DNA of 64,000 nt from Alphaproteobacteria bacterium (GTDB lineage: Bacteria > Pseudomonadota > Alphaproteobacteria > MPNO01 > UBA830). Shown piece by piece: positions 11,771 through 61,210 of this stretch. The stretch is taken from NCBI GenBank assembly GCA_964291215.2, contig OZ219791.1, positions 832,001-896,000 on the forward strand, written 5' to 3'. Position numbers and translations under genes: made by a program. How positions within the stretch are numbered: position 1 is the stretch's first letter; each line of letters opens with the position of its first letter. Under the pieces are notes generated by a model. It saw nothing but the letters and a program-made list of their open reading frames with translations, did not search any database and had not been told where the DNA came from.

Positions 11771-13872
11771 GTATCTCCTCACCCCTCCGCAGAGGCGGGT
11801 TTGGCGTTGTGCATCTTGATCATGTCGGCGGCGAGTGCGATCCGGATGGCGGCTGTAGCCGAGTGCGGCCATGGAGGTGAGATAGCTTGAGCTTCGGCAC
11901 CAGGCCTCGGCGTGGAGCCGGGTTCGGAAGCATCCGGACATCTTGACCTTTGCCATCCGGATTTTCTGCTCGCCGGTGTTGTTGGTGAAGCTGACGTCCG
12001 GGTGCGCCAGGCTAACTGGTGGAATGTTGCCGGGTGCAAGTCCCGGCAGGAAGAGAGGCTAACCACCACTTTCTCCGTGAACCATGCGTCGTGAGGCGTC
12101 AGGCGAAGCGTTGGGGAGCGGCAGGCGTGGGCCGGGCTATTGAGCCACGAGATGCTTTGAAACCGGAGTGCCGAGGTCGTGGCCGAAGGCAACACCCCGC
12201 GAGCCGCGTTGGTGAGGCGAGCGGGGGCTCCGCGGGGTCCGAGAACCATGGCCGAAGCAGGGACCTGGGAGGTCTTGCCCCTCTGTCGTGGAGGGGCCGC
12301 AGAGGAAAGGAACTATTCCGTAAACCGATGATGAACGAGAAGTCAGATTCGGCCATAGTACCGCTGAAGGCAGCGAACAAAGGTTCTCCGGAGCCTGCGG
12401 AGTTGCTGGAGGGAAGGGCAATGCGATTGGCCCGCGCCGCGCGCAGAAGCGGGGGTCACAGGCGGCTGAACGCAGGTAGCGAAGAGGAACCCGGAAGAGC
12501 GTCTTTACTCCACCACGTGATGTCCTGCACGACGCGTTCCATTCCTTGAGGAAGGACGCGGCGGCGGGGCGTTGTGTGGCAAGCGTACGCGGAAGGGGTG
12601 GAACTGGTTGACCTACACGACCGTGTGCACAGGGGTGCGTACCGAGCGCCTCCAGGGTCTACATTCCCAAGGAGGATGGAGGGCAACGACCGCTTGGCAT
12701 TGCCTCGCTGGAGGACAAGATTCTTCAGCGGGCAGTGTGATTCTGGTGCCGCTCTACGAAACGGAGTTCCTCGGTTTCAGCTACGGTTTCCGGCCGGGGC
12801 GCATCACGCGCTCGACGCCGTCACGGTGGAACGGCGGAAGGTCAACTGGATCGTTGACGCCGACATCCGTGGGTTCTTCGACAATCTCGACCGCGACCAT
12901 CTGATTGCGATGCTCGAGAAACGGATCGGGGGGTTATCCGGCTGATCATCAAGTGGCTGAACGCCGGCGTCATGGAAGGGACCGACTGGCAAGGGAACAC
13001 CGCAGGGGGCGATTGTATCGCCCTGCCTCGCGAACGTTTACCTGCACTACGTGCGACTGGTTCCAGAACCACTGGCGCAAGCGGATGGCTGGAGGCGACA
13101 CGATCATTATGCGGACGACTTCGTGTGCGGCTTTCAGCATCTGGGCGATGCGCAGCGCTTTCTCCGGGACCTTGGGGAGAGGCTGGCCCACTTGAACTGC
13201 ACCCGGAAAATCATCGAGTTCGGTCGGTTTGCCAGAGCGAACCGCCGGAAGCAGGGCAAGACGTTCGACTTCCTCGGCATGACGCACTTCTGCGAACAGA
13301 CGAGGAAAGGCAGGTTCAGGGTCGGTCGCAAACCGTCTCGCAAACGGGCACCCTGCGGCGGATCAAGGGGGCCTTGCGCATGCGATGGCACGACAACCGG
13401 CACGAAACGGCCAAGTGGTGAGTTATCAACGGCTGCTACTACGCCGTCCCGGGAAGCAGTCAATCCCTGCAGGGGTTCATACACCAATGCAAACGGCTGC
13501 TCATGCGTGCCCTTCGGCGACGCTCCCAAAAGGACTTCACCGGGGACATAGACACCCTTGCCACCGCCCACTGAGCCAGCATCCGCCACCCGTGGCCAAA
13601 CCAGCGCCTTGTCGTCAGGGGAGGAGCCGGATGCGAACAGCGCATGTCCGGTTCTGTGCGGGGGGACCGGGGCAACCCGGTTCCCTACCGCAATGTCGCT
13701 CATGAAGCGCAGGACGGACTCTTCGTGCCTTGCGAGACGCTCCTGGAGGTTGTGCGCGTTCGCAATCCGTCCGCGTTTTTCTTTCTGTCGGGGCGGGATT
13801 TCAGGCAGTTCCTTCGCCCCCCTCCCCGGTCAGGATGGTCCGGTATCGCTTGATGACGCTGCGACGGTCGGC
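11771..13872 (-). mobile_element. IS66-family 3' remnant (divergent variant) interrupted by a group II intron
   Basis: Right end GTATCTCCTCACCCC at 11771; KRYRTILT, LRFMSD|PDVSFTNN..EQKIRMAKVKMSGCFRT. Confidence 0.85.
12002..13694 (+). mobile_element. Group II intron with frameshifted RT/maturase
   Basis: 5' GTGCG; domain V GAGCCGGATGCG...CGCATGTCCGGTTC (~13623-13655), domain VI and terminal AAT; RT fragments FLGFSYGFRP, WIVDADIRGFFD, YADDFVCGF, FDFLG. Confidence 0.92.
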
Positions 13873-13975
13873 CTTATATGATCAGGTTTTGTCCCCGTGA
13901 TGATGCAATCATCCACAGCGGTCGGGGGCGGGAAAATGTGGATAACCTCGACTATGGGAGAGCGCCCGGTCCATG

Positions 13976-14170
13976 GTTGCAGAGAGATTCCGCTCCCTTG
14001 TGCGAGAACGTACAGGGGAGCGGGGATCAAACGATCTCCGCGGAGGTTGCCGTTTCGCCCCTGGCCTTGCAGAGTCGTTCCCGAGCGTGGTCGGCCAACC
14101 TCCTTTGGCGTCCCTTGCGTCCTGAATGGATGCTTGGGTTTGAACCGTATCATCACAAGGCGAGGAGCAA
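13976..14170 (+). ncRNA. Putative bridge RNA of IS110 copy 1 (boundaries approximate)
   Basis: 5' hairpin; GGAGGTTG..CAACCTCC stem enclosing TCCCGAG (14079-14085, complementary to target flank CTCGGGA); second loop ATGGATGCT (14126-14134) identical to element right end. Confidence 0.8.
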
Positions 14171-14174
14171 GGGA

Positions 14175-14983
14175 TGATGGTCAAGGTAGTAGCAGGGGTC
14201 AGCAAGGCCAGTCTGGACATCTGGCGCGTCGTTTTGCGAACGACGCCACGGGCGCGTGGCTTCGCAGCCTCGAGGTGACCCGTGTGGTGATGGAGGCGAC
14301 AGGTCGCTATCACCGCAGGGTTCACCAGTGTCTTCATGACCGGGGCTTCGAGGTTGTCTTGGTCAACCCGTTGCGGGCTCGGCGCTTCGCCGAGGCGATG
14401 GGCCATCTGGCCAACCGCGTTGACGCCAAGATCGGCACGGTGCGATCTCGAGCCTGTGGCCCCTCAGGAAGCCTTCCTCAAGAGCCTAGGGGATCTCCTG
14501 GTGCCGCGCTTGTCGACGCCAGGCAAGTGGCCAAATGAGGTGGATGGCGAGACCGTCACAAGGGCCTCGGCGGCCGATCTCGATGACCGCATTGCCGGCG
14601 CGGCGATCAAAGCGGTGATCGCCGGTGATCCCGAGCAGAGGTACGCCATCCTGACCTCGATCCCCGGTCCAGTGACCGCCGCAGCCCTTCTTTGTTGGAT
14701 GCCCGAACTCGGCAGTCTCGACCGTCGTCAGGCGGCAGCCTTGATCGGGGTGGCGCCGATAGCCAACGACCACGGCGCTCGGCATATCCGAGGCGGGCGC
14801 CGGAGGCCACGTGATCTCCTGTTCATGGCCGCGACCTCGGCTGCACGCTTCAACGCGGATCTGGTGTTCGAACGCCACAAGACCGCCGGCAAGGCCCACA
14901 AGGTCGCCATTGTCGCCGTGATGCGCAAGCTCTGGCGAACACCTTGCTGCGACAGCAGCGTTGCCCGAAGCACCGGTGAGTGA
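14175..14983 (+). pseudogene. IS110 DEDD recombinase, frameshifted and internally deleted
   Basis: RuvC-like and Tnp domain motifs split over frames; the first catalytic Asp and the KTD and SG motifs appear deleted. Confidence 0.88.
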
Positions 14984-15000
14984 GCGAAGGAGACCCCCTC

Positions 15001-15438
15001 ATGGCCCTCACCTCTGCCGAGAAACAGCGCCGTTATCGGGAACGCCGCAAATCTCTGCCCACGGAAAGCCTCGTCGTTCCCGTGCGCAACGCTGGCGCGA
15101 TGCGGTGGCTCGGTGCAGTGCAGGAGCACTGTCGGGACTGTCTCGACAGTCTCCCCGACGCCCTGCGCGACACGGCTTGCGGAGAACGTCTGCAGATCAT
15201 CGTCGAGGCTGACATCGCGGATCTTGAGGACATCGAACCGCCGCGCGGCTACGGACGGGACACTTGGAACCCCATTGAACATGATAACGTTACCATGCAC
15301 GGGGACGCTGGACGGCAAGGTGGCCGCGCTCACGTGACCGTGAGCAATGGACGGCAACCCGCCGCCGGGACCACAAGCTGCATGTCGCCTCACTCGCAGG
15401 ACATCGACAAGGCGGAACCCCGGACCGCCTGTGGATAA
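15001..15438 (+). CDS. Small accessory protein inside the IS110 element (possibly partly decayed)
   Basis: RBS GAAGGAG 14986-14992; MALTSAEKQRRYRERRK...DIEPPRGYGRD; deleted homologs at the same position in copies 2-4. Confidence 0.6.
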   Translation: MALTSAEKQRRYRERRKSLPTESLVVPVRNAGAMRWLGAVQEHCRDCLDSLPDALRDTACGERLQIIVEADIADLEDIEPPRGYGRDTWNPIEHDNVTMHGDAGRQGGRAHVTVSNGRQPAAGTTSCMSPHSQDIDKAEPRTACG

Positions 15439-15495
15439 CCACAGAAAAAATTACCGCGGACACCCGCAAAAACCTTGCCTGGAAACATGGATGCT

Positions 15496-15870
15496 CGGGA
15501 TGGTGCGATGCCATCATCGACCGCGCCAGCGACTTGTCCTCGTCGGCAACCGGAACCACGCCGATCTCGCCAAGACGGCACGACAGGTGCCTGTCGGGAT
15601 AATCCGGCGACGGGGCCAGGGACTCCGGGGTCACCGAGCCTCCGGCAGGCCGAGTGCGGCGGAGAACTTCGGAAGCGCGGTCGAGGCACAGTTCTCCCTT
15701 CGCGTTCCGCCAGTCCTCACGCTCGCAGAGCTCACGTGCCAGGAAGGTCCGCGTGCAATCCCCGGCGCCAAGCCGTGCCTTCAGCCAGTCAACCGTCTCG
15801 CCGCCATAATGTCGCAGGCCGATTCTCATGGAACCGTATATACGGCGTCAGTTGCTTCGAGTATACAGTG
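15496..15870 (-). mobile_element. 5' fragment of a DUF4338-IS4-type element, target of IS110 copy 1
   Basis: MRIGLRHYGGETVDWL..LARELCEREDWRNAKGELCL..MMASHHPE, homologous to the 17789 ORF start. Confidence 0.75.
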
Positions 15871-17818
15871 TTCGGTTGAAAGGATGTGGACGGCGGTGAC
15901 GGCGTCGAAGGCGAGGCACTTCTTCAGATCGTCGGCCCTGTTGAGCCGGCGGTTTTTGATCCGGGTCCCGGTCTTCAGCGTGCGGAACTAGGTCTCGATG
16001 CTCCATCGCGTCCGGTACCAGCGCAGGACGGTCGCCGCGTGCACGGCCTCCGCTTGCGCCGGGCGCTCAGCAGCAGCAGCGCCTCGTCGCCGTCATCGGT
16101 CTTGCTGGCCGAGACCGCGAACATGGACACAGGTTCCGCGTCGCCCTCGCGTTGCGGCGGCGCCACCTCGACCTGTGCCGTGCGGATCTCGAGATGGACA
16201 ACGCGCTTCTTGCGGGCGCACGGGCCGGCGGCGGCCGGGATCGTCAGCTCCGTCACCGCCACGGGCCGCCGGGCCGCGACATGCTCCCACAGGCACTCCT
16301 CGTTGCCGTTGGGCGTCCGCACGCGCTGTCTCGCCGAGCGGCTCGCCCGCACCAGCAGCGCAGCCCCGGTGTCCACGGCATGGGCGAGCAGCTCCCGGAA
16401 GTCGCCCTCGCGGTCGCAGACCGAGACCACCCGCGTGTCCGGGCAGGCCGTCGCGAGCTCTCGTGCCCGCTCGAGACCGGCGACCCGGCGCCGGCTGTCC
16501 TCCCCGGGCTCCTGCCGGAAGGCCGCGTCCATCGTGAACAGGCCCAGGGGCCGGCCCTCCGGCGTCACCGCCAGACCGGCATGGGCGAGAATGTCGACGC
16601 TCCCCTTGTCGCCCCCGCCGATCCCGTCAGGACCCTTCGTCGACCCCGGGCCGCTGTAGTCGAGTGCCGTCGTGTCCTGTATCGCAAGGACAAGAGGCCC
16701 TGTCCGACAACGCTCGACTCGACATGCGCCTCCAGAACGTGCTCCATGGAGACCCTCGGGTTCGACAACAACCGGCAGGCGGCCTTCTGCTCCGCCTTCT
16801 CCGAAAAGATGACCGGCAGGTCCTCCCCCATGTTCTCCATCCAGGCCCGGCCCATGTCAACGATGCGCCGCCGCATTCGCCCGTCGGTATGGCGCGTGCG
16901 CCCGTACTCCCGCTCCGCCCAGTCCGCGTCAGTGCCGTCATAGGCGCCCGCCAAGGCGCCGAGTGGACGTCGCTGTGTCCCGTGGAGCGCCGCCCGCCAG
17001 CCGCTCTCCAGCGCCAGGACCCGCACCGTGCGAACCTCGCCGCGGCGCCCGCTGGTCCGCCCGGCCACGGTCCAGCCGGCGCAGTGGTAGCAGTAACCGC
17101 TGTGCTCCCACCGGACGCACCGCATAACGGGCCTCCCAGTCGTCGGCGATGCGCTCCGTCGCCATGCGCAGGACCCGGGAGGCCAGCCCGTAGACCCGGA
17201 CGCCGGGAAGCAGGAGAAACCGATGATGGCAGATCACGCGCCTGATGTTGGCGGCGCGGGCGTCGGCAGACCATCCGATCCACTTGTCCCGCGCCCGCAG
17301 CTGCCAGGTCGCGGACCCGAAGCCGATCCCGCCGAGCGTGCCGTGGTGCTGCGAGCGGACCCAGTAGCGCATCTGGCCGCCGGGCGAGCGCGCCCATCCC
17401 AGCGGGTGGTGCGTCGCCATCATCGCCTCCCAGAGCCGGCGATCGTCGGTGCCGCCCACCAGTTCGAGCGAGACCGGGCCGAGATCCTGCAGCAGGCAGG
17501 CGAGCTTGGTGTCGGGCACGTCATCGGACGGGACGGCGGGCACGACGGTCGGATCGGGGGTGCTCCGCGGCGGCGGAAGCTCGAGACCCACGCGCTCGGC
17601 GAGCGCCGGCAGCACCTTCGCTGCCGCCGACAGGCACGGACGACCAAGCGCGTTGCGCCAGCCGGTGCGCTCGCAAAGCTCGCGAGCCAAATCGTGACGG
17701 GTGGCGGCGGCGGAGCGCAACGCGCCAGCGAACCAGTCAAGTGTCTGTGAATCGAAATGGCGGAGACCGACCTGCATGCCCGCAAGCATGCACGAAACGA
17801 ATTACCTATACAAATCTG
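15871..17818 (-). mobile_element. IS4-family (IS50/Tn5-like) element with N-terminal DUF4338 domain, degraded, 3'-truncated
   Basis: HHPLGWARSPGGQMRYW..RARDKWIGW..RFLLLPGVRVYGLAS; AEREYGR..DGR; VVSVCDREGDF; FRTLKTG. Confidence 0.85.
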
Positions 17819-19299
17819 GTAACTGTTCACCCCCTGGTTCCGGCTTGATGTCGGGGTAGAGTAACGAACGGGTTTACGTGGAGATTTGACATTGCAGGCC
17901 GATTCGCTTAGTGGTGGTCATCGAGAACGACGGGGACCGCCAGTGGGCTACTTTGGATCGAAGGCGACGAGCGGGCTGTGCCAGCTGCTTCCGGGGCTCC
18001 AGCCCCCGCATGATCTGTATGTGGAAACGCATCTCGGAGGCGGCGTGCTGATGAAGCGCAAGGCCGGGTGATGGCGACGGGCGGCGCGCGAGGAGTTCGA
18101 AGCGGCCAAGACCGCGGCGCTGCCGGCAAGGTGGCGGAAGAGGCCGTCATCCGCGTCTTCGTCATCCTGCTCGACATCCTCATCGTCGTCCTTCTGGAGA
18201 AGACCACGCACGAGCCGGAACTCCGGTCTGCCGCCGTCACAGACGGACAAGAGCGTGCCGGGAGCAACGGCCCGAAGCCGAACCAGCAGATGGGCGACAA
18301 CCTGCGCAAGATCATCGTCGAGGAGACGGTCGCGGCCTGCGACGCCTGCGGCGCCGACGGCCCCGTCGATCGGGAGCGCCGCACGACATCGTGTTCGAGG
18401 TCGTCGAGCGTCGACGCCGAGGAATGCCCGAAGTGCAAGGCCCGGGGCCGGTTCCCCGACAACATCCCGTGCAGTACGGCATCCAGGCCCTCGTCATCAA
18501 CCTGCTGGTCGCCCAGATGCTGTCCCTGCGCCGTGCCGTTGCGTTCGTGCAGGCGATCTCTGGCATCAAGCTCTCCGAGGCCTCGGCTATGCTTTCACGA
18601 TGTGTCATGGGAGGAAGCCGCCGTGGCGCACCTCCTGCAACGCCCGATGTCGATGATTTCGGATCAACAGTAAGTGGCTCCATGTCGTGGGGCCCTGACG
18701 TGCAAGTTCCCGCACCGCAAGCGCGGGCAAGAGATCGGCCCGTGCTACAAGGGCGTCCTGGGCCTCGTATATGGCAGTGTAGCCACCAGCTGTGCGGTAG
18801 CCACCAGCTGCGCGAACTGACCTTTGTCGTCGAGGCTACCGCGCGACTGATGAAGGGCCTGCTCCGCGAGGTCTGCCACAAGGTCAACAAGAGCGCATCC
18901 AAGACCCTGAACGACGCCGGGCGCAAGCGCTACCGCACCATCAGGGCGCCAAGGAACTGCCCGACATCCCGACGAAAGGAAAACGTGGACGCAAGTCCGA
19001 CGCGCACAACCTGCACGAACGTCTCGTGAAACACGAAAACCTGCGCTTCATAGACAACCCCGACGTCAGCTTCACCAACAATGCCGGAGAACAGAAGATC
19101 AGGATGGCAAAGGTCAAGGTGTCCGGATGCTTCCGCTCCACGCAAAAGCATGGTGCCGGGGCTCAAGCTACCTCACCTCCATGGCCGCACTCGGCTACAA
19201 CCCACTCGTCGCCACCCAGATCGCCCTCGACGGAAAAGCCGCAGACATCATCAACGAGCACTATGGCCAATCAGAACCCAACAAGGGGTTAGTAGATAC
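17819..19299 (+). mobile_element. IS66-family MTase-bearing element, deleted derivative
   Basis: TIRs GTAACTGTTCACCCC / GGGGTTAGTAGATAC; 8-bp TSD CAAATCTG. Confidence 0.93.
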
Positions 19300-24898: not shown

Positions 24899-25199
24899 AC
24901 TTTATCCCGGCACGACATGACCTTGTATGATCGGGGCCCTCGGCGGGTATGCCGATGTCCTGTTGGTGGCAGCTCCCCAACAGCGCTTTTAATTTACCCT
25001 GCCGTGGATTCCATAAGCCGGGCCGTTGTTCAGGTATCGGCTGTTTTCCGGGCCGGCCGCCGTTCCAAATCGCGTCCCGCCACTTCCAGATAATCGGCGC
25101 CGTGAAGACCAGCCCGACGGCGAAGAAGTCTCTTGCGCTGGAGCAGGAGGTTGCGCCTTTGGGCCGGCTTCTTGCCGAGGCTGGCGTTGACGCGCGGAA

Positions 25200-25626: not shown

Positions 25627-26101
25627 CCGCTGTCGCAAGGTGATCCCATGCTTGTTGATGTGATGTGATCGGAGTCCTGATCGCGGCGCGGGTTGACGCG
25701 TTCGAGGCTGCGATTTTGAGATTTGCTGACGCGCTGTTGCGGCGCGGGGTGCGATTGGTCGACCTATCCGGGGCGAGCGAGAGGCCTTGGTTGCCGGGCT
25801 CGAAAGCTTGCGGTTTCTGTCGGGGAGAGAGGCGCGGTCAGCCTGGTCTCGTGATTGCGTGCAGGACCTGCTTGCGCTTGTCCGCATGGTTGTGTCGACG
25901 AAGCTGTTGAAGGGTTTGGTCAGCTTGCGCTTGTTGTGGATGATGACGGCGATTGCGAGGGTGATCGCGTTGTTTGCGAACGCGTTCGGAGCATGGAGTC
26001 GTCTTCGCGGAAGGTGGCATCGCGGACATGATGATGGCTCTCGACTACCCAGTGTCCGCGATTCCATGCGAGCAACTGTTGCGGCGAGGCGCGTTCGACC
26101 G

Positions 26102-27457
26102 AGCATCCATGTTTCTTGGCAAGGTTTTTGCGGGTGTCTGTGGTGATGTTTTCTGTGGTTGTCCACAAGCGGTATGGGATTTGCTCTGCGATCGAGGCGA
26201 CATGAAGCTTGTGGTCCCGGCGGCGGGTTGCCGTCCATTGGTCACGTGAACGCGGCTACCTTGCCGTCCCCGGGCACGTGACCGTCCGGGTTCCAGGTGT
26301 CCCAAGGCGGTTCGATCTCCTTGATGTCGACCTCGACGATGATCTGCAGACATTCTCCCCAAGTCGTGTCGTAGAGGGAGACTGTCGATACAGTCCCGAT
26401 CGCGCTCTCGGCAGGGGTGAGGGCCATGAGGGTGGTCTCCTTCGCTCACTCACCGGTGCTTCAGGCAACGCTGCTGTCGCAGCAAGGTGTTCGCCAGAGC
26501 TTGCGCATCACGGCGACAATCGCGACCTTGCTTGCCGGCAGTCTTGAGGCGCTCGAACACGCTTGCCAGGTCCGCGTTGAAGCGGGCCGGTTGCGGCCAG
26601 GAGATCGCGTGGCCTTCGGCGCCCGCCACGGATGTGCCGAGCACCGTGGTCGTTGGCGCCACCCCGATCAAGGCTGCCGACGCTGCCGAGTTCGGGCATC
26701 CAGAAGGGCCGCGGCGGTCACCGGACCGGGGTCAGGATGACGTAGCTCTGCTCGGGATCACCGGCGATCACCGCTTTGATCGCCGCGCCGGCAATGCGGT
26801 CATCGAGATCGGCCGCTAAGGCCCTTGTGACGGTCTCGCCATCCACCTCATCTGCCACCTGCTTGGCGTCGACAAGCGCGGCACCAGGAGATCCTCCAGG
26901 CTCTTGAGGAAGGCGGAGCCACAGGCTCACCGTGCCGATCTTGGCGTCGAAGCGGTTGGCCCATCGCCTCGGCGAAGCGCCCGCAACGGGTTGACGAGAA
27001 TAACCTCGAAGCCCCGGTCATGAAGACACTGGTGAACCTTGCGGTGATAGCGGCCTGTCGCCCACCACCCGGCTCACCCCGAGGCCGCGAAGCCACCTGC
27101 CCGTGGCGTCGTCCGCAAAACAATGCGCCAGATGTCCAGACTGGCTGACCCCTGCTACTACCTTGACCATCGTCCCTTGCTCCTCGCCTTACGATGGGTT
27201 CAAACCCAAGCATCCATTCAGGACGCGAGGGACGTCAAGGGAGGTTGGCCGACCACACTCGGTCGCGGCTCTGTCAAGGTCGAAATGGCAACCTCCGCGG
27301 AGATCGTTTGATCTCCGCTCCCCTGTGCGTGTTCGCTCAGGGAAGCGGAATCTCTCTGCAACCATAAACCGGACGCTCTCCCACAGATCCACATTTCCCC
27401 GCCCCCAACTGCTGTGGATGATTTCATCATCAAGGGGACAAAACCTGGTCATATAAG
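26102..27457 (-). mobile_element. IS110 element copy 2
   Basis: CT core at both junctions; homologous to 13873-15495. Confidence 0.9.
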
Positions 27458-27526
27458 GTCATGGCGTGTTCGGTTTTCCGGATTTCTTGAATTCGACGTG
27501 CCGAGTGACGCGGAAGATCTGCTTGA

Positions 27527-28752
27527 CTAGTAGTCCACCGGCATTGTATTGATGGTTTTTGGTGGGTAGTATTCCTGTGTCGGCATCCGTTGGAATCTGG
27601 ACAGTGTCGATATCCACACGGGCAAGATGCCGAACAGGCAGGCAGCCGCAGCCCCATGTGCAGGTCCGGACAACGGGAGCGGCGCAATGACAGGAGCAAC
27701 GTATATGGCCAACTCTCGGGGCAGGAAGCTCTACCGGGTGACCCTTTCAGCGCAGGAGCGCCGGGATCTGAAGGCGATTGTCGACGGCACCGGGGCTGCC
27801 TGGCGTCGGCGCCGGGCACAAATCCTGATGCTGAGGGGGCGCTTGTCGATGCCGACATTGCGCAAGGGCTGGGCACGGCGACGATTGAGCGCTTGCGCAA
27901 GCGCTGCGTCCTGGAGGGGCTGGACGCCGCCCTCAGCCGCAAGGAGCAGGTGAACCGTCGGCCGAAACGGCTGGACGGGGCGATGGAGGCGAAGCTGGTC
28001 TCGTCCCCGCCCGAGGGCTGTGGACGCTGAAGCTGCTCGCCAGCCGTCTGGTGGAGATCGTCGAGCGCATTTCGGAAGAGACGGTCAGGAAGACGCTAAA
28101 AAAAAGAGATCAAGCCGTGGCTGAACTGGTGCATTCCACCGCACCGGAGCGCACAGTTCGTGGCGGCGGACGTGCTTGACATTTATCAGCGGGACTTTGC
28201 CAGGGACGAGGTGCTGAGACCAGCCGGCAGCAGACGAAGGAAACCCGCATCCCTCGTCCCCCGGTCAGCCGGAGGTGGTCGACCATGAATATGAGCGCAA
28301 CGGCACGGCCAACCTCTTCATGGCCTTTGCGCCCAACGAGAACTGGCGCACGGTGAAAGTCACCGACCGCCGCGGGACTGGGCACACTTCATCCGGGAGC
28401 TTGCCGACGACCATTTCCCCGACAGGAAGATCGTGCTGGTCAATTTGAACACGCACAGTCACTGTATGAAGCCTTCGAGCCCGAGGAGGCGGGTGCGAAA
28501 GCGGTTCGAGTTTCGCTATACGCCGAAGCACGGAAGCTGGCTCAACATGGCCGAAATCGAGATCGGTGCGCTGTCGCGGCAGTGCCTTCGGCGACGCATT
28601 CCCGACCGCGACAGCATGCTGCGGGAGACCGTGGCGTGGGTCGAGCGCCGCAATGCGGCCGATGTCACTGTCGACTGGCGTTTCACGACGAAGGATGCCC
28701 GGACGAAACTGAAGTCACTATATCCATCAATATAATAATGCTAGACTACTAG
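27527..28752 (+). mobile_element. IS630-family element copy 2
   Basis: Inserted at CTAG of GCTTGACTAGTTGATC (empty site visible at ~37742). Confidence 0.92.
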
Positions 28753-30120
28753 TTGATCATCTTCGCCAGCGGGCTGAAGATGGTGCGCTGGCGGCCATGG
28801 GCGGGCTTTTCGCTGTAGCGTCCCGTGCTCGCGGTCTTCCAGTTGATGCTCTCGAAGGTGCGTTGCCCTTGACCATCAGTCCGCGCGATGGGTCTCGATG
28901 ATCAGCCTCGCGGGTGGTGTGGAGCGCGTCGAGGGTGAGCAGACGGCCGGCAACCGGTGCCGTCTCGAGCGCGGCGTGGACGGCAGCGATCTCCCCGTCG
29001 TGATAGTTGAAGATCGAATACCGGCCAGCGAGACCGTCTCGTAATGATCCTCGCCGGTGCGGCCGCGCTTGCCGTCGACCGCGTTGCCGACCTGCGGCTG
29101 CGCGCCGCATCCTCGATCCATCCCGGGTCGGTGTTCTGCAGCACCCGGTGCACGGTCGATCTGGAGACCGGCTTGTCCCTGTTCTTCCATGCTGCTCCAG
29201 CTCCTTCTGCGTCGTAGTGCGCCGCCGCAACCGCACCGTGCCGGTTCGCAAGCCAGCAAAATCACGCACAGCACCGAGGCGATGCGGTGCCCCTGCGCGC
29301 GCCGGAAAGCGCCGCTGATAAATCGAGCGCAACTCCTGCGCCGACCAGCGGCGCCCGCAACTCCCACGCCACAGGAAGCGGCGAACGATCCCGCGTCACG
29401 ACGCAACGGAAACACGTAAAGATCCTTCGCCTCCCCGGTCGGCGCCCGCTGGCGCGCGCATGGCCCCTGCCAACGCACTCCCGGTTCGCCGCCTTGTACA
29501 TGGTGCCGCTGAACTTCGTCGGCGAAACAAACGACTCCGCAACAAGTAACGGATGGCCGTACGCAGCCTCCCAGTCGCCACCGAGACGCCGCACCATCCG
29601 CGACAACGCAAACGAGGCAAGGCCCGGAAACGACCACCAGGAACAACAAACCTCGTGTTGTTCCCGGCAACCGCCTGAACTGTTCCTCGCGGCGCCAGCC
29701 AATCCAACGGGTGCGCAGCTGAGGGCGCCCGTCTGCCAGCCCGCAGCACCAATCCACCGCCCGCGCCAGGTGAACACGTAGCGCAGATCCCGACCGGCAA
29801 ACTGCTTGAAACCAAGGATGACGGTCAACGACACGATTCCAGCGACATCAGGCCGCGCAAGGCGCACAACCACATCCCGGAGCACAAAACCCTCTGGAGT
29901 CGTCTCAAAAAAATCCGCTGCCTCCACGACAACGGATACTACGCCGCTTCACAAAAAGTCAGCGAAAATGCGAATCATCCTGAACAAGCAAAACCGACCC
30001 TTCCAACAAACCTGGCGTGGGATCGCCGTGCCGCCGTCGTCATGGAGGTTGCGCGCCATGGCCCGCTGCGGCATGGTGTGCAGATTCACCCCTCTGTCGG
30101 CAGAATTGGGCGTTCAGGCC

Positions 30121-34600: not shown

Positions 34601-35060
34601 CAAGGTGATCCCATGCTTGTTGATGTGATGTGATCGGAGTCCTGATCGTGGCGCGGGTCGACGCGTTCGAGGCTGCGATTTTGAGATTTGCTGACGCGCT
34701 GTTACGGCGCGGGGTGCGATTGGTCGGCGTATCCGGGGCGAGCGAGAGGCCTTGGTTGCCGGGCTCGAAAGCTTGCAGTTTCTGTCGGGGAGAGAGGCTC
34801 GATCAGCCTGGTCTTGTGATTGCGTGCAGGACCTGCTTGCGCTTGTCGACATAGTGGTGTCGACGAAGCTGTTGAAGGGTTTGGGCAGCTTGCGTTTGTT
34901 GCGGATGATGATTGCGAGGGTGATCGCGTTGTTTGCGGGCGCGTTCGGAGCATGGAGTCGTCTTCGCGGAAGGTGGCATCGCGGACATGATGATGGCTCT
35001 CGACTACCCAGTGTCCGCGATTCCATGCGAGCAACTGTTGTGGCGAGGCGCGCTCGACCG

Positions 35061-37671
35061 AGCATCCATGTTTCTTGGCAAGGTTTTTGCGGGTGTCTGT
35101 GGTGATGTTTTCTGTGGTTGTCCACAAGCGGTGTGGGGTTTGCTCTGCGAGCGAGGCGACATGAAGCTTGTGGTCCCGGCGGCGGGTTGCCGTCCATTGG
35201 TCACGTGAACGCGGCTACCTTGCCGTCCCCGGGCACGTGACCGTCCGGGTTCCAGGTGTCCCAAGGCGGTTCGATCTCCTTGATGTCGACCTCGACGATG
35301 ATCTGCAGACATTCTCCCCAAGTCGTGTCGTAGAGGGAGACTGTCGATACAGTCCCGATCGCGCTCTCGGCAGGGCCGTGTCTCCTTCACTCACTCACCG
35401 GTGCTTCAGGCAACGCTGCTGTCGCAGCAAGGTGTTCGCCAGAGCTTGCGCATCACGGCGACAATCGCGACTTTGTGGGCCTTGCCGGCAGTCTTGAGGC
35501 GCACCAGGTCCGCGTTGAAGCGTGCCGGTTGCGGCCAGGAGATCGCGTGGCCTTCGGCGCCCGCCACGGATGTGCCGAGCACCGTGGTCGTTGGCGCCAC
35601 CCCGATCAAGGCTGCCGACGCTGCCGAGTTCGGGCATCCAGAAGGGCCGCGGCGGTCACCGGACCGGGGATCGAGGTCAGGATGGCATACCTCTGCTCGG
35701 GATCACCGGCGATCACCGCTTTGATCGCCGCGCCGGCAATGCGATCATTGAGATCGGCCGCCGAGGCCCTTGTGACGGTCTCGCCATCCACCTCATCTGC
35801 CACCTGCTTGGCGTCGACAAGCGCGCCACCAGGAGATCCTCCAGGCTCTTGAGGAAGGCGGAGCCACAGGCTCAAGATCGCCCAGCCGATCTTGGCGTCG
35901 ACGCGGTTGGCCCATCGCCTCGGCGAAGCCCGCAACGGGTTGACGAGAATAACCTCGAAGCCCCGGTCATGAAGACACTGGTGAACCTTGCGGTGATAGC
36001 GGCCTGTCGCCCACCACCCGGCTCACCCCGAGGCCGCGAAGCCACTTGCCCGCCAGCTCGTGGCGTCGTTCGCAAAACAATGCGCCAGATGTCCAGACTG
36101 GCCTTGCTGACCCCTGCTACTATCTTGACCATCGTCCCTTGCTCCTCGCCTTACGATGATACGGGTTCAAACCCAAGCATCCAGCGAGGGACGTCAAGGG
36201 AGGTTGGCCGATCACACTCGGTCGCGGCTCTGTCAAGGCCAAGGTCAAAACGGCAACCTCCGCGGAGATCGTTTGATCCCCGCTCCCCTGTGCGTGTTCG
36301 CTCAGGGGAGCGGAATCTCTCTGCAACCATAGCTCTCCCACAGATCCACATTTTCCCGCCCCCAAATGCTGTGGATGATTTCATCATCAAGGGGACAAAA
36401 CCTAGTAGTCTAACATTATTGGATTGACGAATATAGTGACTTCAGTTTCGTCCGGGCATCCTTCGTCGTGAAACGCCAGTCGACAGTGACATCGGCCGCA
36501 TTGCGGCGCTCGACCCACGCCACGGTCTCCCGCAGCATGGTGTCGCGGTCGGGAATGCGTCGCCGAAGGCATTGCCGCGACAGCGCGCCGATCTCGATCT
36601 CGGCCATGTTGAGCCAGCTTCCGTGCTTCGGCGTGTAGCGAAACTCGAACCGCTTTCGCACCCGCCTTCTCGGGCTCGAAGGCTTCATACAGCGACTGTG
36701 CGTGTTCAGATTGTCCAGCACGATCTTTCTGTCGGGGAAATGGTCGTCGGCAAGCTCCCGGATGAAGTGCGCCCAGTCCCGCGGCGGTCGGTGACTTTCA
36801 CCGTGCGCCAGTTCTCGTTGGGCGCAAAGGCCATGAAGAGGTTGGCCGTGCCGTTGCGCTCATATTCATAGTCGACCACCTCCGGCTGACCGGGGGATAC
36901 GGGTTTCCTGCTGCCGGCTGGTCTCGCACACCAGCACCTCGTCCTTGGCAAAGTCCCGCTGATAAGTGTCAAGCACATCCTCCATCGCCGCTACGAACTG
37001 TGCGCTCCGGTGCGGTGGAATGCACCAGTTCAGCCACGGCTTGATCTCTTTTTTTAGCGTCTTCCTGACCGTCTCTTCCGAAATGCGCTCGACGATCTCC
37101 ACCAGACGGCCGGCGAGCAGCTTCAGCGGGCACAGCCCTCGGGCGGGGATGAGCAGGCTAGGGCGACCAGCTTCGCTTCCATCGCCCCGTCCAGCCGTTT
37201 CGGCCGACGGTTCACCTGCTCCTTGCGGCTGAGGGCGGCGTCCAGCCCCTCCAGAACGCAGCGCTTGCGCAAACGCTCGACCGTCGCCGTGCCGATGCCC
37301 AGCCCTTGCGCAATGTCGGCATCGACAAGCCGAGCGCCCCCTCGTCAGCCAGCATCAGGATTTGTGCCCGGCGCCGACGCCAGGCAGCCCCGGTGCCGTC
37401 GACAATCGCCTTCAGATCCCGGCGCTCCTGCGCCGAAAGGGTCACGCGGTAGAGCTTCCTGCCCCGAGAGTTGGCCATATGCGCTGCTCCTGTCATTGCG
37501 CCGAAGACCTGCGGGCATGCCCGTTGTCCGGACCTGCGCATGGGGCTGCCTGCCTGTTCGGCATCTGCCCGTGTGGATATCGGCACTGTCCGGATTCCAA
37601 CGAACGCCGACACGGAAATACTACCCACCAAAACCATCAATACAATGCCGGTGGACTACTAGTCATATAAG
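35061..37671 (-). mobile_element. IS110 element copy 3, with IS630 inserted near its left end
   Basis: CT cores at 35061-2 and 37670-1; same ISAs1 site as copy 2. Confidence 0.9.
36402..37662 (-). mobile_element. IS630-family element copy 3
   Basis: CTAGTAGTC...GACTACTAG ends; homologous to copies 1 and 2. Confidence 0.92.
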
Positions 37672-39383
37672 GTCATGGCGTGTTCGGTTGTCCGTTTTCC
37701 GGATTTCCTGAATTCGACGCGCCGAGTGACGCGGAAGATCTGCTTGACTAGTTGATCATCTTCGCCAGCGGGGTGAAGACCTCGATGGTGCGCTGGCGGC
37801 CATGCGCGGGCTTTTCGTTGTAGCGCTGGCGGTCTTCCAGTTGATGCTCTCTCAAAGGTTTCAGGCGCGTTGCCCTTGACCATCATCATCCAGTCCGCGC
37901 GATGGGTCTCGACGATCAGCCGCGCGGTCTCGCGGGTGGTATGGAGCGCGTCGAGGGTGAGCAGACGGCCGGCAACCGGTGCCGTCTCAAGCGCGGCGTG
38001 GACGGCAGCGATCTCCCCGTCGTGATAGTTGAGGATCGAATACCGGCCAGCGAGACCGTCTCGTAATGATCCTCGCCGGTGCGGCCGCGGATGCGCTTGC
38101 CGTCGACCGCGTTGCCGACCTCCAGGCGCGGCTGCGCGCCGCATCCTCGATCCATCCCGGGTCGGTGTTCTGCAGCACCCGGTGCACGGTGGAGACCGGC
38201 TTGTCCCTGTTCTTCCATGCTGCTCCAGCTCCTTCTGCGTCGTAGTGCGCCGCCGCAACCGCACCGTGCCGGTTCGCAAGCCGCGCCATCACGCACAGCA
38301 CCGAGGCGATGCCCCTGCGCGCGCCGGAAAGCGCCGCTGATAAATCGAGCGGAACTCCTGCGCCGACCAGCGGCGCCCGCAACTCCCACGCCACAGGAAG
38401 CGGCGAACGATCCCGCAGCCGACGTCACGACGCAGCGGAAACACGTAAAGATCCTTCGCCTCCCCGGTCGGTATAGCGCCCGCTGGCGCGCGCATAGCTC
38501 CTGCCAACGCACTCCCAGTTCGCCGCCTTGTACATGGTGCCGCTGAACTTCGTCGGCAAGACAAACGACTCCGCAACAAGCAACGGATGGCCGTACGCAG
38601 CCTCCCGGTCGCCGCCGCACCATCCGCGACAACGCAAACGAGGTTCGGAAACACCCGGCGACCACCAGGAACAACAAACCTCGTGTTGTTCCCGGCAACC
38701 GCCTGAACTGTTCCTCGCGGCGCCAGCCAATCCAACGGGTGCGCAGCTGAGGGCGCCCGTCTGCCAGCCCGCAGCGCCAATCCACCGCCCGCGCCAGGTG
38801 AACACGCAGACCTCGACCGGCAAACTGCTTGAAACCAAGATACGGTCAACCACACGGTTCCAGCGGCACTAGGCCGCGCAAGGCGCACAACCACATTCCG
38901 GAGCGCAAAACCTTCCGGAGTCGTCTCAAAAAAATCCGCTGCCCCCACGACAACGGATACTACGCCGCTTCACAAAAAGCCAGCTAAAATGCGAATCATC
39001 CTGAACAAGCGAAACCGACCCTTCCAACAAACCTAGCGTGGGATCACCGTGGCAAAACCCAAGTGCTGCCTTGAAAAACAAACAGAATTTAGCGTAAGAT
39101 CACCCTGCCCTCCACCTCCTGCAAGCGCAGCTCCTCACAGCGACCCTCCGCAGCCTCGGCTCGAATACGCTTGCGATCGTACAGGGACTTCCGGGTGGCC
39201 GAATCATGACACGACGACTGCGGCATGTCGCCAGCGGCGTCCGCACCCGATGATGACACGAAATCCTCGATGCACATGACCATGCACGACCTGATAGTAC
39301 CGCCAAAAAAATTTACCAGTCTCCTTCTCCGAATCACCAAAATGAACCTCGGCGCAGATCGTCATCACCGCACGAACGAACGC

Positions 39384-56373: not shown

Positions 56374-57762
56374 CAGGGCATCTTTCGGATCGTGCCGGTC
56401 ACCTGCGTGGCGAGCGGCGCGGATATTCCGCGGCTGCGACGCCGGGAGGCTTGCGTCAACCACGGCGATCCCACGCTAGGTTTGTTGGAAGGGTCGGTTT
56501 TGCTTGTTCAGGATGATTCGCATTTTCGCTGGCTTTTTGTGAAGCGACGTAGTATCCGTTGTCGTGGGGGCAGCGGATTTTTTTGAGACGACTCCGGAGG
56601 GTTTTGCGCTCCGGGATGTGGTTGTGCGCCTTGCGCGGCCTGATGTCGCTGGAACCGTGTTGTTGACCGTATCTTGGTTTCAAGCAGTTTGCCGGTCGAG
56701 GTCTGCGCTACGTGTTCACCTGGCGCGGGCGGTGGATTGGTGCTGCGGGCTGGCAGACGGGCGCCCTCAGCTGCGCACCCGTTGGCTGGCGCCGGCGAGG
56801 AACAGTTCAGGCGGTTGCCGGGAACAACACGAGGTTTGTTGTTCCTGGTGGTCGTTTCCGGGCCTTGCCTCGTTTGCGTTGTCGCGGATGGTGCGGCGGC
56901 GACTGGGAGGCTGCCGTTGCTTGTTGCGGAGTCGTTTGTCTTGCCGACGAAGTTCAGCGGCACCATGTACAAGGCGGCGAACTGGGAGTGCGTTGGCAGG
57001 AGCTATGCGCGCGCCAGCGGGCGCTATACCGACCGGGGAGGCGAAGGATCTTTACGTGTTTCCGCTGCGTCGTGACGTCGGCTGCGGGATCGTTCGCCGC
57101 TTCCTGTGGCGTGGGAGTTGCGGGCGCCGCTGGTCGGCGCAGGAGTTGCGCTCGATTTATCAGCGGCGCTTTCCGGCGTGCGCAGGGGCACCGCATCGCC
57201 TCGGTGCTGTGCGTGATTTTGCTGGCTTGCGAACCGGCACGGTGCGGTTGCGGCGGCGCACTACGACGCAGAAGGAGCTGGAGCAGCATGGAAGAACAGG
57301 GACAAGCCGGTCTCCACCGTGCACCGGGTGCTACCGACCCGGGATGGATCGAGGATGCGGCGCGCAGCCGCAGGTCGGCAACGCGGTCGATGGCAAGCGC
57401 ACCGGCGAGGATCATTACGAGACGGTCTCGCTGGCCGGTTTCGATCCTCAACTATCACGACGGGGAGATCGCTGCCGTCCACGCCGCGACGGCACCGGTT
57501 GCTGGCCGTCTGCTCACCCTCGACGCGCTCCACACCACCCGCGAGGCTGATCATCGAGACCCATCGCGCGGACTGATGGTCAAGGGCAATGCACCTTCGA
57601 GAGAGCATCAACTGGAAGACCGCCAGCGCTACAACGAAAAGCCCGCGCATGGCCGCCAGCGCACCATCTTCACCCCGCTGGCGAAGATGATCAACTAGTC
57701 AAGCAGATCTTCCGCGTCACCCGGCGCGTCGAATTCAAGAAATCCAGAAAACCGAATACGCC

Positions 57763-59208
57763 ATATGACTAGGTTTTGTCCCCTTGATGATGAAATCATC
57801 CACAGCAGTTGGGGGCGGGAAAATGTGGATCTGTGGGAGAGCTATGGTTGCAGAGAGATTCCGCTCCCTTGAGCGAACACGCACAGGGGAGCGGGGTGCG
57901 GGGATTAAACGATCTCCGCGGAGGTTGCCGTTTTGACCTTGACAGAGCCGCGATCGAGTTTGGTCGGCCAACCTCCCTTGACGTCCCTCGCTGGATGCTT
58001 GGGTTTGAACCCGTATCATCACAAGGCGAGGAGCAAGGGACGATGGTCAAGGTAGTAGCAGGGGTCAGCAAGGCCAGTCTGGACATCTGTGCGACGGGCA
58101 TTGTTTTGCGAACGATGCCACGAGCTGGCGGGCAGGTGGCTTCGCGGCCTCGGGGTGAGCCGGGTGGTAATGGAGGCGACAGGCCGCTATCACCGCAAGG
58201 TTCACCAGTGTCTTCATGACCGGGGCTTCGAGGTTATTCTCGTCAACCCGTTGCGGGCGCTTCGCCGAGGCGATGGGCCATCTGGCCAAAACCGACCGCG
58301 TCGACGCGTTGATGTTGGCCAAGATCGGCTGGGCGATCTCGAGCCTGTGGCTCCGCCTTCCTCAAGAGCTTGGAGGATCTCTTGGTGCCGCGCTTGTCGA
58401 CGCCAAGCAGGTGGCAGATGAGGTAGATGGCGAAGGCGAGACCGTCACAAGGGCCTCAGCGGCCGATCTCGATGATCGCATTGCCGGCGCGGCGATCAAA
58501 GCGGTGATCGCCGGTGATCCCGAGCAGAGGTACGCCATCCTGACCTCGATCCCCGGTCCGGTGACCGCCGCGGCCCTTCTTTGCTGGATGCCCGAACTCG
58601 GCAGCGTCGGCAGCCTTGATCGGGGTGGCGCCGATGGCCAACGACCACGGTGCTCGGCACATTCGTGGCGGGCGCCGAAGGCCACGTGATTTCCTGTTCA
58701 TGGCCGCAACCGGCCCGCTTCAACGCGGACCTGGTGCGCCTCAAGACTGCCGGCAAGGCCCACAAGGTCGCGATTGTCGCCGTGATGCGCAAGCTCTGGC
58801 GAACACCCTGCTGCGACAGCAGCGTTGCTGGGCGCCTGAAGCACCGGCACGGTAAGTGAGCGAAGGGGACACCCTCATGGCCCTCACCCCTGCCGAGAGC
58901 GCGATCGGGACTGTATCGACAGTCTCCCTCTACGACACGACTTGGGGAGAATGTCTGCAGATCATCGTCGAGGCCGACATCAAGGAGACCGAACCGCCTT
59001 GGGACACCTGGAACCCAGACGGTCACGTTACCATGCCCGGGGACGGCAAGGTAGCCGCGTTCACGTGACCAATGGACGGCAACCCGCCGCCGAGACCACA
59101 AGCTTCATGTCGCCTCGCTCGCAGGGCAAATCCCACACCGCTTGTGGACAACCACAGAAAACATCACCGCAGACACCCGCAAAAACCTTGCCAAGAAACA
59201 TGGATGCT
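57763..59208 (+). mobile_element. IS110 element copy 4 (left junction eroded by a small deletion)
   Basis: Homologous to copies 1-3; retains AKTDRVD; right end ATGGATGCT. Confidence 0.88.
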
Positions 59209-59387
59209 CGGTCAAGCGCGCCTCGCCGCAACAGCTGCTCGCATGGAATCGCGGACACCGGGTAGTCGAGAGCCATCATCATGTCCGCGACGCCACCTTC
59301 CGCGAAGACGACCCCATGCTCCGAACGCGCCCGCAAACAACGCGATCACCCTCGCAATCATCATCCGCAACAAACGCAAGCTGCCCA

Positions 59388-60880
59388 GTAACTGCTCACC
59401 CCCTGGTTCCGGCTTGATGTCGGGGTAGAGCAACGAACGGGTTTTCGTGGAGATTTGACACTGCAGGCCGTTTCGTTTAGTGGTGGTCATCGAGAACGAC
59501 GGGGACCGCCAGTGGGCTACTTTGGATCGAAGGCGACGAGCGGGCTGTGCCAGCTGCTTCCGGGGTTCCAGCCTCCGCATGATCTGTATGTGAAAACGCA
59601 TCTCGGAGGCGGCGCGCTGATGAAGCGCAAGGCCGGGTGATGGCGACGGGCGGCGCGCGAGGAGTTCGAAGCGGCCAAGATCGCGGCGCTGCCGGCAAGG
59701 TGGCGGAAGAGGCCGTGATCCGCGTCTTCGTCATCCTGCTCGACATCCTCATCGTCGTCCTTCTGGAGAAGACCACGCACGAGCCGGAACTCCGGTCTGC
59801 CGCCGTCACAGACGGACAAGAGCGTGCCGGAAGCAACGGCAAGGGCCCGAAGCCGAACCGGCAGATGGGCGACAACCTGCGCAAGATCATCGTCGAGGAG
59901 ACGGTCGCGGCCTGCGACGCCTGCGGCGCTGACATCGACGGCCCCGTCGATCGGGAGCGCCGCACGACATCGTGTTCGAGGTCGTCGAGCGCCGCGCCGA
60001 GATCAAGGAATGCCCGAATTGCAAGGCCCGGGGCCGGTTCCCCGACAACATCCCGTGCAGTACGGCATCGGCATTCAGGCCCTCGTCCCTGCTGGTCGCC
60101 CAGATGCTGTCCCTGCGCCGTGCCGCTCGTGCAGGCGATCTCCGGCATCAAGCTCTCCGAGGCCTCGGCTATGCTTTCACGATGCGTCATGGGAGGAGGC
60201 CGCCGTGGCGCACCTCCTGCAACGCCCGATGTCGACGATTTCGGATCAACGGCAAGTGGCTTCATGTCGTGGGACCCTGACGTGCAAGTTCCCGCACCGC
60301 AAGCGCGGGCAAGAGATCGGCCCGTGCTACAAGGGCGTCCTGGGCCTCGTACATGGCAGTGTAGCCACCAGCTGTGCGGCAGCCACCTGCTGCGCGAACT
60401 GACCTTCGTCGTCGAGGCTACCGCACGACTGATGAAGAGCCTGCTCCGCGAGGTCTGCCACAAGGTCAACAAGAGCGCATCCAAGACCCTGAACGACGCC
60501 GGGCGCAAGCGCTACCGCACCATCAGGGCCCAGGGAACTGCCCGACATCCCGACGAAAGGAAAACGTGGACGCAAGTCCGACGCGCACAACCTGCACGAA
60601 CGTCTCGTGAAACACGAAAACCTGCGCTTCACAGACGACCCCGATGTCAGCTTCACCAACAATGCCGGAGAACAGAAGATCAGGATGGCAAAGGTCAAGG
60701 TGTCCGGATGCTTCCGCTCCACGCAAAAGCATGGTGCCGGGGCTCAAGCTACCTCACCTCCATGGCCGCACTCGGCTACAATCATCACGTCGCAACCCAG
60801 ATCGCCCTCGACGGAAAAGCCGCAGACATCATCAACGAGCACTACGACCAATCAGAACCCAACTAGGGGTGAGTAGATAC
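59388..60880 (+). mobile_element. IS66-family MTase-derivative element
   Basis: Both TIRs; 8-bp TSD GCTGCCCA. Confidence 0.93.
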
Positions 60881-61210
60881 GCTGCCCAAACCCTTCAACA
60901 GCTTCGTCGACGCCACTATGCCGACAAGCGCAAGCAGGTCCTGCACGCAATCACAAGACCAGGCTGACCGCGCCTCTCTCCCCGACAGAAACTGCAAGCT
61001 TTCGAGCCCGGCAACCAAGGCCTCTCGCTCGCCCCGGATACGCCGACCAATCGCGCCCCGCGCCGTAACAGCGCGTCAGCAAATCTCAAAATCGCAGCCT
61101 CGAACGCGTCGACCCGCGCCGCGATCAAGACTCCGATCACATCACATCAACAAGCATGGGATCACCTTGGCGTCAACGCCCGAGCCTTGCCGCTGGCGGC
61201 GAACTCGGTT

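Follow-up and report, generated by a model that had tools for sequence, protein, structure and literature searches.

A decayed IS110 element with matching guides sits mostly in other insertion sequences of an alphaproteobacterial genome

The alphaproteobacterial genome studied here carries about 70 copies of a decayed IS110 element whose predicted guides match the sites that these copies occupy. Most of these sites lie within other insertion sequences (IS). Elements with a DUF4338 domain, which we take to be the older name of DruA (PF14236), are over-represented among them. The bias toward IS is genuine; so is the DUF4338 excess, though it is modest. Probably, guides drift, alleles that match multicopy and dispensable DNA survive, and the IS bias is the outcome of this filter rather than of a programme against one family.

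Our analysis started from a window (the whole stretch of 64,000 nucleotides) in which repeated DNA makes up 57%, compared to 31% of the whole genome. The window contains four IS110 copies. These copies, their parts and their hosts are the following:

13703..13872, minus strand: fragment of an IS66-family transposase gene, left of copy 1
13875..15493, plus strand: IS110 copy 1 (older subfamily gamma), flanked by IS66 on the left and DUF4338-IS4 on the right
15496..17820, minus strand: DUF4338-IS4 DNA right of copy 1; junction at ..SMMASHHPE; an IS4 match adjoins
25636..30030, minus strand: host of copy 2, a DUF4338-ISAs1 element of family F2 (coordinates of the termini), DruA match at 29442-29897
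26104..27455, minus strand: IS110 copy 2 (subfamily alpha), CT cores at 26102-26103 and 27456-27457
26250..26427 (lower end approximate), minus strand: remnant of the passenger ORF of copy 2 (about 120 aa in the relative L032)
26450..27170, minus strand: IS110 recombinase pseudogene of copy 2, its frame broken by many short deletions
27180..27239, minus strand: predicted donor-binding loop of copy 2, containing ATGGATGCT, identical to the element's right end plus core
27240..27296, minus strand: segment of copy 2 (from the fold of the intact relative L032)
27527-28753: IS630-like insert in the host of copy 2 (DDE_3 match)
35063..37669, minus strand: IS110 copy 3, at the same site as copy 2 in another F2 copy (34601-39051)
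about 36407-37662: IS630-like insert in the left end of copy 3
about 57764-59206, plus strand: IS110 copy 4, at the same site as copy 2 in F2 copy 56461-61169

As originally predicted, copies 2 to 4 occupy one site in an ISAs1 transposase gene, where the frame reads KTEHAMT on one side and SVERASPQQLL on the other, with a single CT core. The F2 host matches Pfam DruA/PF14236 and NCBIfam ISAs1, both above the cut-off. Copy 4 has the host variant SVKRA, the right target variant CGGTCA, a 7-nt deletion at its left junction, and a right guide that is that of another site class. The right flank of copy 1 lies in a DUF4338-IS4 element as had been stated, and the SMMASHHPE position is homologous to the DruA match in the related IS4 element L005; the IS66 transposase gene on the left had been overlooked. 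Since the right flank is DUF4338-IS4 but the left flank IS66, copy 1 is a recombinant of two insertions. Inside this IS66, at 12500-13700, lies a decayed frame that we take, by its motifs, to be group II intron reverse-transcriptase-like. Pfam finds no IS110 domain in the window's own ORFs because the frames are broken. A search of viral contigs with the DUF4338-ISAs1 protein found no relative. The claim that no copy hits a host gene is correct for the window, rich as it is in repeated DNA, but not for the genome, where one copy splits a host gene. A stretch of 13 nt at 24922-24934 (CTTGTATGATCGG) matches the left end of IS110. It comes directly after an ABC permease gene, is preceded by ATGAC and has no element behind it; possibly it is the remnant of a lost copy.

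Judged by its sequence, the element is an IS621-like IS110 with a predicted 5' bridge RNA. Genome-wide there are 83 merged matches, of which 59 are nearly full-length, and right junctions number 68. A full recombinase frame is found in none of the 59 near-full copies, and a domain search of the copies gives fragments only. Relatives in five other alphaproteobacterial assemblies match a 78-residue query at 81-88% and keep the same ends. At least three of them (L032, L041 and L042) have an intact recombinase frame. L032 (88% identical) matches PF01548 and PF02371, reaches 202 bits against NF033542 (cut-off 140) and aligns with IS621 over residues 8-301 (E 2e-28). Its GID, MEATG, KTDRVD and SG align with those of IS621, and presumably they hold the catalytic D-E-D-D residues and the serine. 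The first D and the SG are deleted in window copy 1.

The left end consists of about 285 non-coding nucleotides before the start codon, with both loops inside. In L032 this end is predicted to fold into two long hairpins whose internal loops contain the guides (z -5.97, 0/200 shuffles). One loop contains ATGGATGC, which is the element's own right end; the other contains two target-matching segments. A search of Rfam gave no match for the bridge RNA region. Both junctions have a CT core, the empty site has a single CT, and a target duplication is absent. A passenger ORF of about 120 residues lies 3' of the recombinase gene; it has three matches, two of them from this genome, and no family match was found. 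In relatives (L032:3361-4020; compare window 15001-15480) the passenger ORF is followed by 2-3 imperfect repeats of about 100 nt. Both element ends carry TGTGGATAAC-like words, which we take to resemble DnaA boxes. Membership in the IS1111 group was rejected: the guides lie upstream of the transposase gene and not downstream, and in place of the sub-terminal repeats of that group (11-13 bp) the only inverted match is an imperfect one of 9 nt, about 18 nt inward from the right end. When 60 related genomes were compared at the DNA level, only short, weak matches turned up, and the element was not found in those searched.

The claim that the element is RNA-guided gains support from the L032 fold and from guide-target covariation, all of it evidence at the sequence level. 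In the relatives, guide and target agree at 102 of 120 positions, compared to 60.7 after shuffling (0/20000; 15 distinct guide-target rows). In this genome the left guide scores 69 against 52.8 shuffled (1/20000) and the right guide 99 against 78.5 (0/20000). Seven sequences from relatives (L036-L040, L148 and L149) share one guide with a CC core position, which apparently works on the left target in two registers that differ by one base.

Guides vary within the genome. The 63 parsed copies carry 20 guide alleles, mostly 1-2 bases apart. A single allele (TTCCGTC/CGGGAA, 17 copies) is found at IS1634, at DUF4338-ISAs1, at a low-copy repeat and at a host gene. Perfect 11-mers in unique DNA stay empty 10 times for the beta guide, 6 times for site A and 10 times for site D, while the filled junctions in IS copies number 14, 21 and 11, respectively. 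The guide is unable to distinguish these empty 11-mers from the filled IS sites. The site-C 11-mer (TGACCTCGATC) is also present in the element's own recombinase gene in 62 copies, and no self-insertion was seen among them.

Filled sites were counted against empty ones, as had been suggested; empty sites keep the single CT. At site A, 21/28 matching alleles are filled, compared to 0/14 mismatched ones; at site B, 14/16 compared to 0/12. We did not use occupancy by allele for event counts because it fits guided insertion and co-conversion alike. Equally matched sites are filled very unequally: 14/16 at site B, but only 1-2 of about 25 at site H.

The copies occupy 20 distinct sites. Nine lie in DUF4338 elements, five in other IS (IS1634, ISNCY, IS630 and IS66), one in a low-copy repeat and five in unique DNA. 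Seven of the 20 rest on one junction only. The variant flank E28 was merged with site D, and E58, whose left end is broken by another IS, was left out. The hosts at named sites are:

Site A: ISAs1 family F2 (DUF4338), 20 right junctions
Sites D, E and H: ISAs1 family F1 (DUF4338), 11, 5 and 1 right junctions
Sites J and T: ISAs1 family F1 (DUF4338), left junctions only
Sites G, L and M: IS4-type (DUF4338), 4, 2 and 1 right junctions
Sites B and N: IS1634-like gene, 14 and 1 right junctions, weak NCBIfam match (E 7e-4)
Site C: ISNCY-like gene, 3 right junctions
Site K: IS630-like gene
Site I: IS66
Site P: unique DNA, splits the host frame DFFALPE / DDKRTVERPEDR, which has other breaks

Motifs also support the IS1634-like identity that we assume for the B/N host gene, and it is from motifs that we take the host of site K to be IS630-like. 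The host frame at site P presumably resembles a 2-oxoglutarate iron dioxygenase, again by motifs; its three pieces have no match in NCBIfam.

Mapping all insertions across the genome, as the original prediction proposed, places 14/20 sites and 64/68 right junctions in other IS. Insertions are thus not mostly outside IS at the frequency expected from IS density. Coding regions hold 13 of the 14 IS sites; the remaining one, site L, lies about 35 nt inside an end. Of these 14 sites, 12 are in families at least as diverged as IS110. Family F1 has five sites within 2.1 kb, at which all three subfamilies are represented. The DUF4338 targets are scattered over positions on both strands and do not coincide with conserved catalytic codons of one family.

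Relative to the host transposase gene, copies at A, B, C and E are in sense (42 right junctions), and those at ten sites (D, G, H, I, J, K, L, M, N and T) are antisense (22). Read-through from the host promoter might help the sense copies. The first 30 nt of the IS110 left end are themselves an insertion hot spot for IS256-like elements, for IS630-like elements (at CTAG) and for IS66 (copies E11, E13, E24, E58; E22, E26, E38, E39, E42, E61; E33, E35, E53). In E33 and E35 the IS66 end lies at one shared position, although the right flanks of the two copies come from different sites.

We measured the bias against nine unguided IS families, taking one end each, with 623 distinct ends. Of these control ends, 316 adjoin repeats and 51 (8%) adjoin DUF4338 elements. 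For IS110, 15/20 sites are in repeats (Fisher p 0.04 versus control) and 9/20 are in DUF4338 elements (p 2e-5). The IS bias exceeds repeat density (31% of the genome; p 5e-5). The DUF4338 elements cover 3.6% of the genome yet hold 44/68 junctions.

The expected DUF4338 share of repeat sites is 13-14% by multicopy target words, and 23% (about 27% by base sum) for older families only. With the two sites from which the idea arose (A and M) set aside, DUF4338 elements hold 7 of the 13 remaining repeat sites (p 0.0008 at 14%, 0.015 at 23% and 0.037 at 27%). Compared to control families of similar age, the share is 9/15 for IS110 versus 16/92 (p 0.001).

The DUF4338 excess is not inherited, because it is missing from the relatives. 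In the five related genomes, 28 right ends fall into 22 distinct sites, of which clearly 5 and possibly 2 are mobile DNA. A match to a DUF4338 element within 700 nt (outside IS110) was found at 0/22 sites, although DruA matches number 85, 16, 19, 35 and 2 in these genomes. All three multi-copy sites of the relatives are in mobile DNA (IS66 three times, IS5 four times, an intron twice), and most single sites are not. In these same genomes (G061-G065), DUF4338-fused transposase frames of 700-900 aa are abundant (up to 85 matches); in 14 control genomes there are none.

Hence the proposal that the guides are programmed against DUF4338 elements keeps the over-representation (9/20 versus 51/623) but not the DUF4338-specific programme. 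The second-largest class (14 junctions) is IS1634-like, one allele serves an IS1634, a DUF4338-ISAs1 and a host gene alike, and no site of the relatives is in such an element. The further idea that competitors are inactivated finds no support in the hosts, since filled and empty ones are both decayed.

To explain the distribution, we favour drift of the guides followed by a filter on outcomes, which we consider probable. Point mutations would make guides drift, and a new site would open to a guide that has mutated or that tolerates mismatches. Matches in unique DNA would mostly stay empty as insertions there are purged, as the empty sites suggest. A match in an IS of 10-50 copies would offer many harmless targets. 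Filled sites could then spread when further insertions are made by a recombinase and a guide that act in trans, or when gene conversion carries them from one host copy to another; transposition of the host in trans may contribute as well. Dead copies may be moved in trans or spread by conversion. The DUF4338 excess likely arises in part from such elements being old, long and numerous while IS110 was active, which leaves an unexplained residue. Three observations count against this model: the controls do not fully remove the DUF4338 excess, family F1 is targeted by all three subfamilies, and equally matched sites are filled unequally.

How many insertion events lie behind the copies was judged differently at first. 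The original prediction read the deletions shared by copies 2 to 4 as a sign of composite copying and held only two independent events to be certain. Neither point stands. Each of the 18 deletions recurs in half or more of those copies of the subfamily that sit at other sites; the deletions are subfamily traits, and we rejected them as proof of composite copying. The floor is 20 events if one-sided junctions count and 13 if they do not.

A comparison of the IS110 and host phylogenies had also been proposed originally. The IS110 body tree has three subfamilies. Copies from sites A and D mix in it, and bodies with the same guide allele cluster whatever their site. Among 344 polymorphic columns, no character is diagnostic of site A. 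The host-flank tree covers site A only, and there the filled hosts are scattered instead of forming one group (9 changes, of which strong branches require at least 3), with haplotypes scrambled by conversion. Of the 12 filled F2 copies in which both ends could be located, six are bordered by perfect target duplications of 8-10 nt, so their ends are usable.

Gene conversion is likely common. Four-gamete tests are failed by 2226 of 3741 SNP pairs (60%) at all distances, distances of host-left, body and host-right are uncorrelated (rho -0.15, 0.16 and -0.10) while outer duplications are often intact, and all 21 filled A sites share one derived 6-nt deletion. Therefore repeated insertion, conversion and composite copying are indistinguishable, and the true event count is hidden. 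Another likely recombinant is copy E82 (C2:3385610-3387055). Its left flank is that of site H and its right flank that of site D; both sites belong to one host family, and its body falls between two subfamilies. Recombination between two IS110 copies likely produced it.

Alternatively, each site may have been entered a single time, in part off-target, with the high copy numbers at A, B and D due only to composite copying by the host transposase or to conversion. In this case the guides would say little about strategy. The derived deletion at site A would fit (0/3 undeleted alleles are filled), as would the four-gamete failures, the many site-A copies that carry site-D guides and the perfect duplications around filled F2 copies. 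However, the filled A hosts are not one group and no character marks the site-A bodies. Flank and body distances are uncorrelated too, although conversion would also erase such a signal. Furthermore, the count of 20 distinct sites is unaffected by how the copies at each site multiplied. We consider this explanation unlikely.

A second alternative is that the lineage was selected, at the host or the element level, to retarget DUF4338 transposase genes repeatedly, silencing and riding them. We judge this quite unlikely. In its favour are the excess of sites and junctions in DUF4338 elements over the control, the five sites in one family reached from all three subfamilies, and the behaviour of F2: it is inserted inside the IS110 copy E51/E52 and therefore moved after IS110 had arrived, so that hitch-hiking of IS110 on F2 is possible. 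Against it, the relatives target no such element in genomes with 2-85 DruA matches, and at two of their loci a DUF4338-IS4 lies inside IS110 instead. In this genome 11/20 sites are elsewhere and the target positions are scattered on both strands. The excess shrinks to p 0.015-0.04 once corrected for age, and filled and empty hosts are equally decayed. The boldest version would have the IS110 bridge RNA repeatedly reprogrammed, in three subfamilies, onto DUF4338-fused transposase genes since their knockout was favoured, a self-retargeting control of rivals in which dead copies are moved in trans by any available guide. To this speculation we give little credence.

Finally, mosaic copies and shared deletions could be artefacts of assembly or polishing in repeats, as 7-14 indel events per kb between copies of 92-97% identity in every repeat family and the lack of a contig spanning the copy 2 locus in the sequencing runs examined might suggest, but this is highly improbable given a genome 99.3% complete by a marker set, contigs of run X1 (possibly the source sample) that match window-specific stretches of copy 2 and host with 0 differences or gaps, gap lengths in IS110 copies that peak at 5-7 nt and not at 1 nt, and matching empty sites for the junction classes. 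Decay proceeds mainly via 5-7-nt deletions in all IS families, and short repeats (at least 2 nt) flank 39% of 96 gaps, compared to 19% at random. Contigs of the sequencing runs also show joints that skip the element; they may come from the copy 2 locus or from empty paralogues alike.

That IS110 elements target other transposons is already published. For IS621, the available text describes loops that can be reprogrammed and a guide provided in trans (Durrant et al. 2024, PMC11208160), which supports parts of the mechanism favoured above. Our element shares with it the CT core, the long left non-coding end, the order of target then donor loop and the short DEDD+Tnp recombinase. It differs in its targets (IS genes here, REP repeats for IS621), in the passenger ORF 3' of the recombinase, in its broken copies and in the many guide alleles in one genome. 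So does the excision of IS621, which needs the RNA and may act between copies, according to the part of the source available (PMC13626964).

The closest parallel in target choice is ISEc21, an IS110-group element whose target is described as lying inside an IS3-family transposase gene (Siddiquee et al. 2024, PMC11187229). Like our element, it thus enters a transposase gene that belongs to a different IS family. Its single target lies at conserved DDE codons, whereas our element uses 14 sites, on both strands, spread over six IS groups. The same text gives natural redirection by few guide changes, for single pairs (ISMch6, ISXne4) (PMC11187229). IS4321/IS5075 (IS1111-group) and IS1383, of the IS110 family, also insert into other transposons. 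In the available accounts their targets are terminal repeats (those of Tn21 and the inverted repeats of IS1384, respectively), whereas 13/14 IS sites here are in coding regions. Cargo-bearing IS110 elements, as far as their preprint describes them, likewise have extra DNA behind the recombinase, locus rearrangements and a guide possibly in trans (bioRxiv 10.64898/2026.08.14.744561). The cargo here is one small ORF without family match, and no resistance gene was seen. Among mostly open-access main texts, whose supplements may list similar targets, we found no report of IS110 targeting DUF4338 or of such a guide series in one genome.

What is useful here is the natural record of guide change. 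About 20 guide alleles, 1-2 bases apart, stand beside their targets and their empty matches and form a readable series on natural bridge-RNA reprogramming. From it one could quantify how far guides tolerate mismatches in nature, their action in trans and the filter that retains insertions in repeats. The relatives L032, L041 and L042 offer recombinases that look functional and have naturally different guides. Should the DUF4338 excess turn out to be selected, insertion sequences would here be in RNA-guided conflict with one another.
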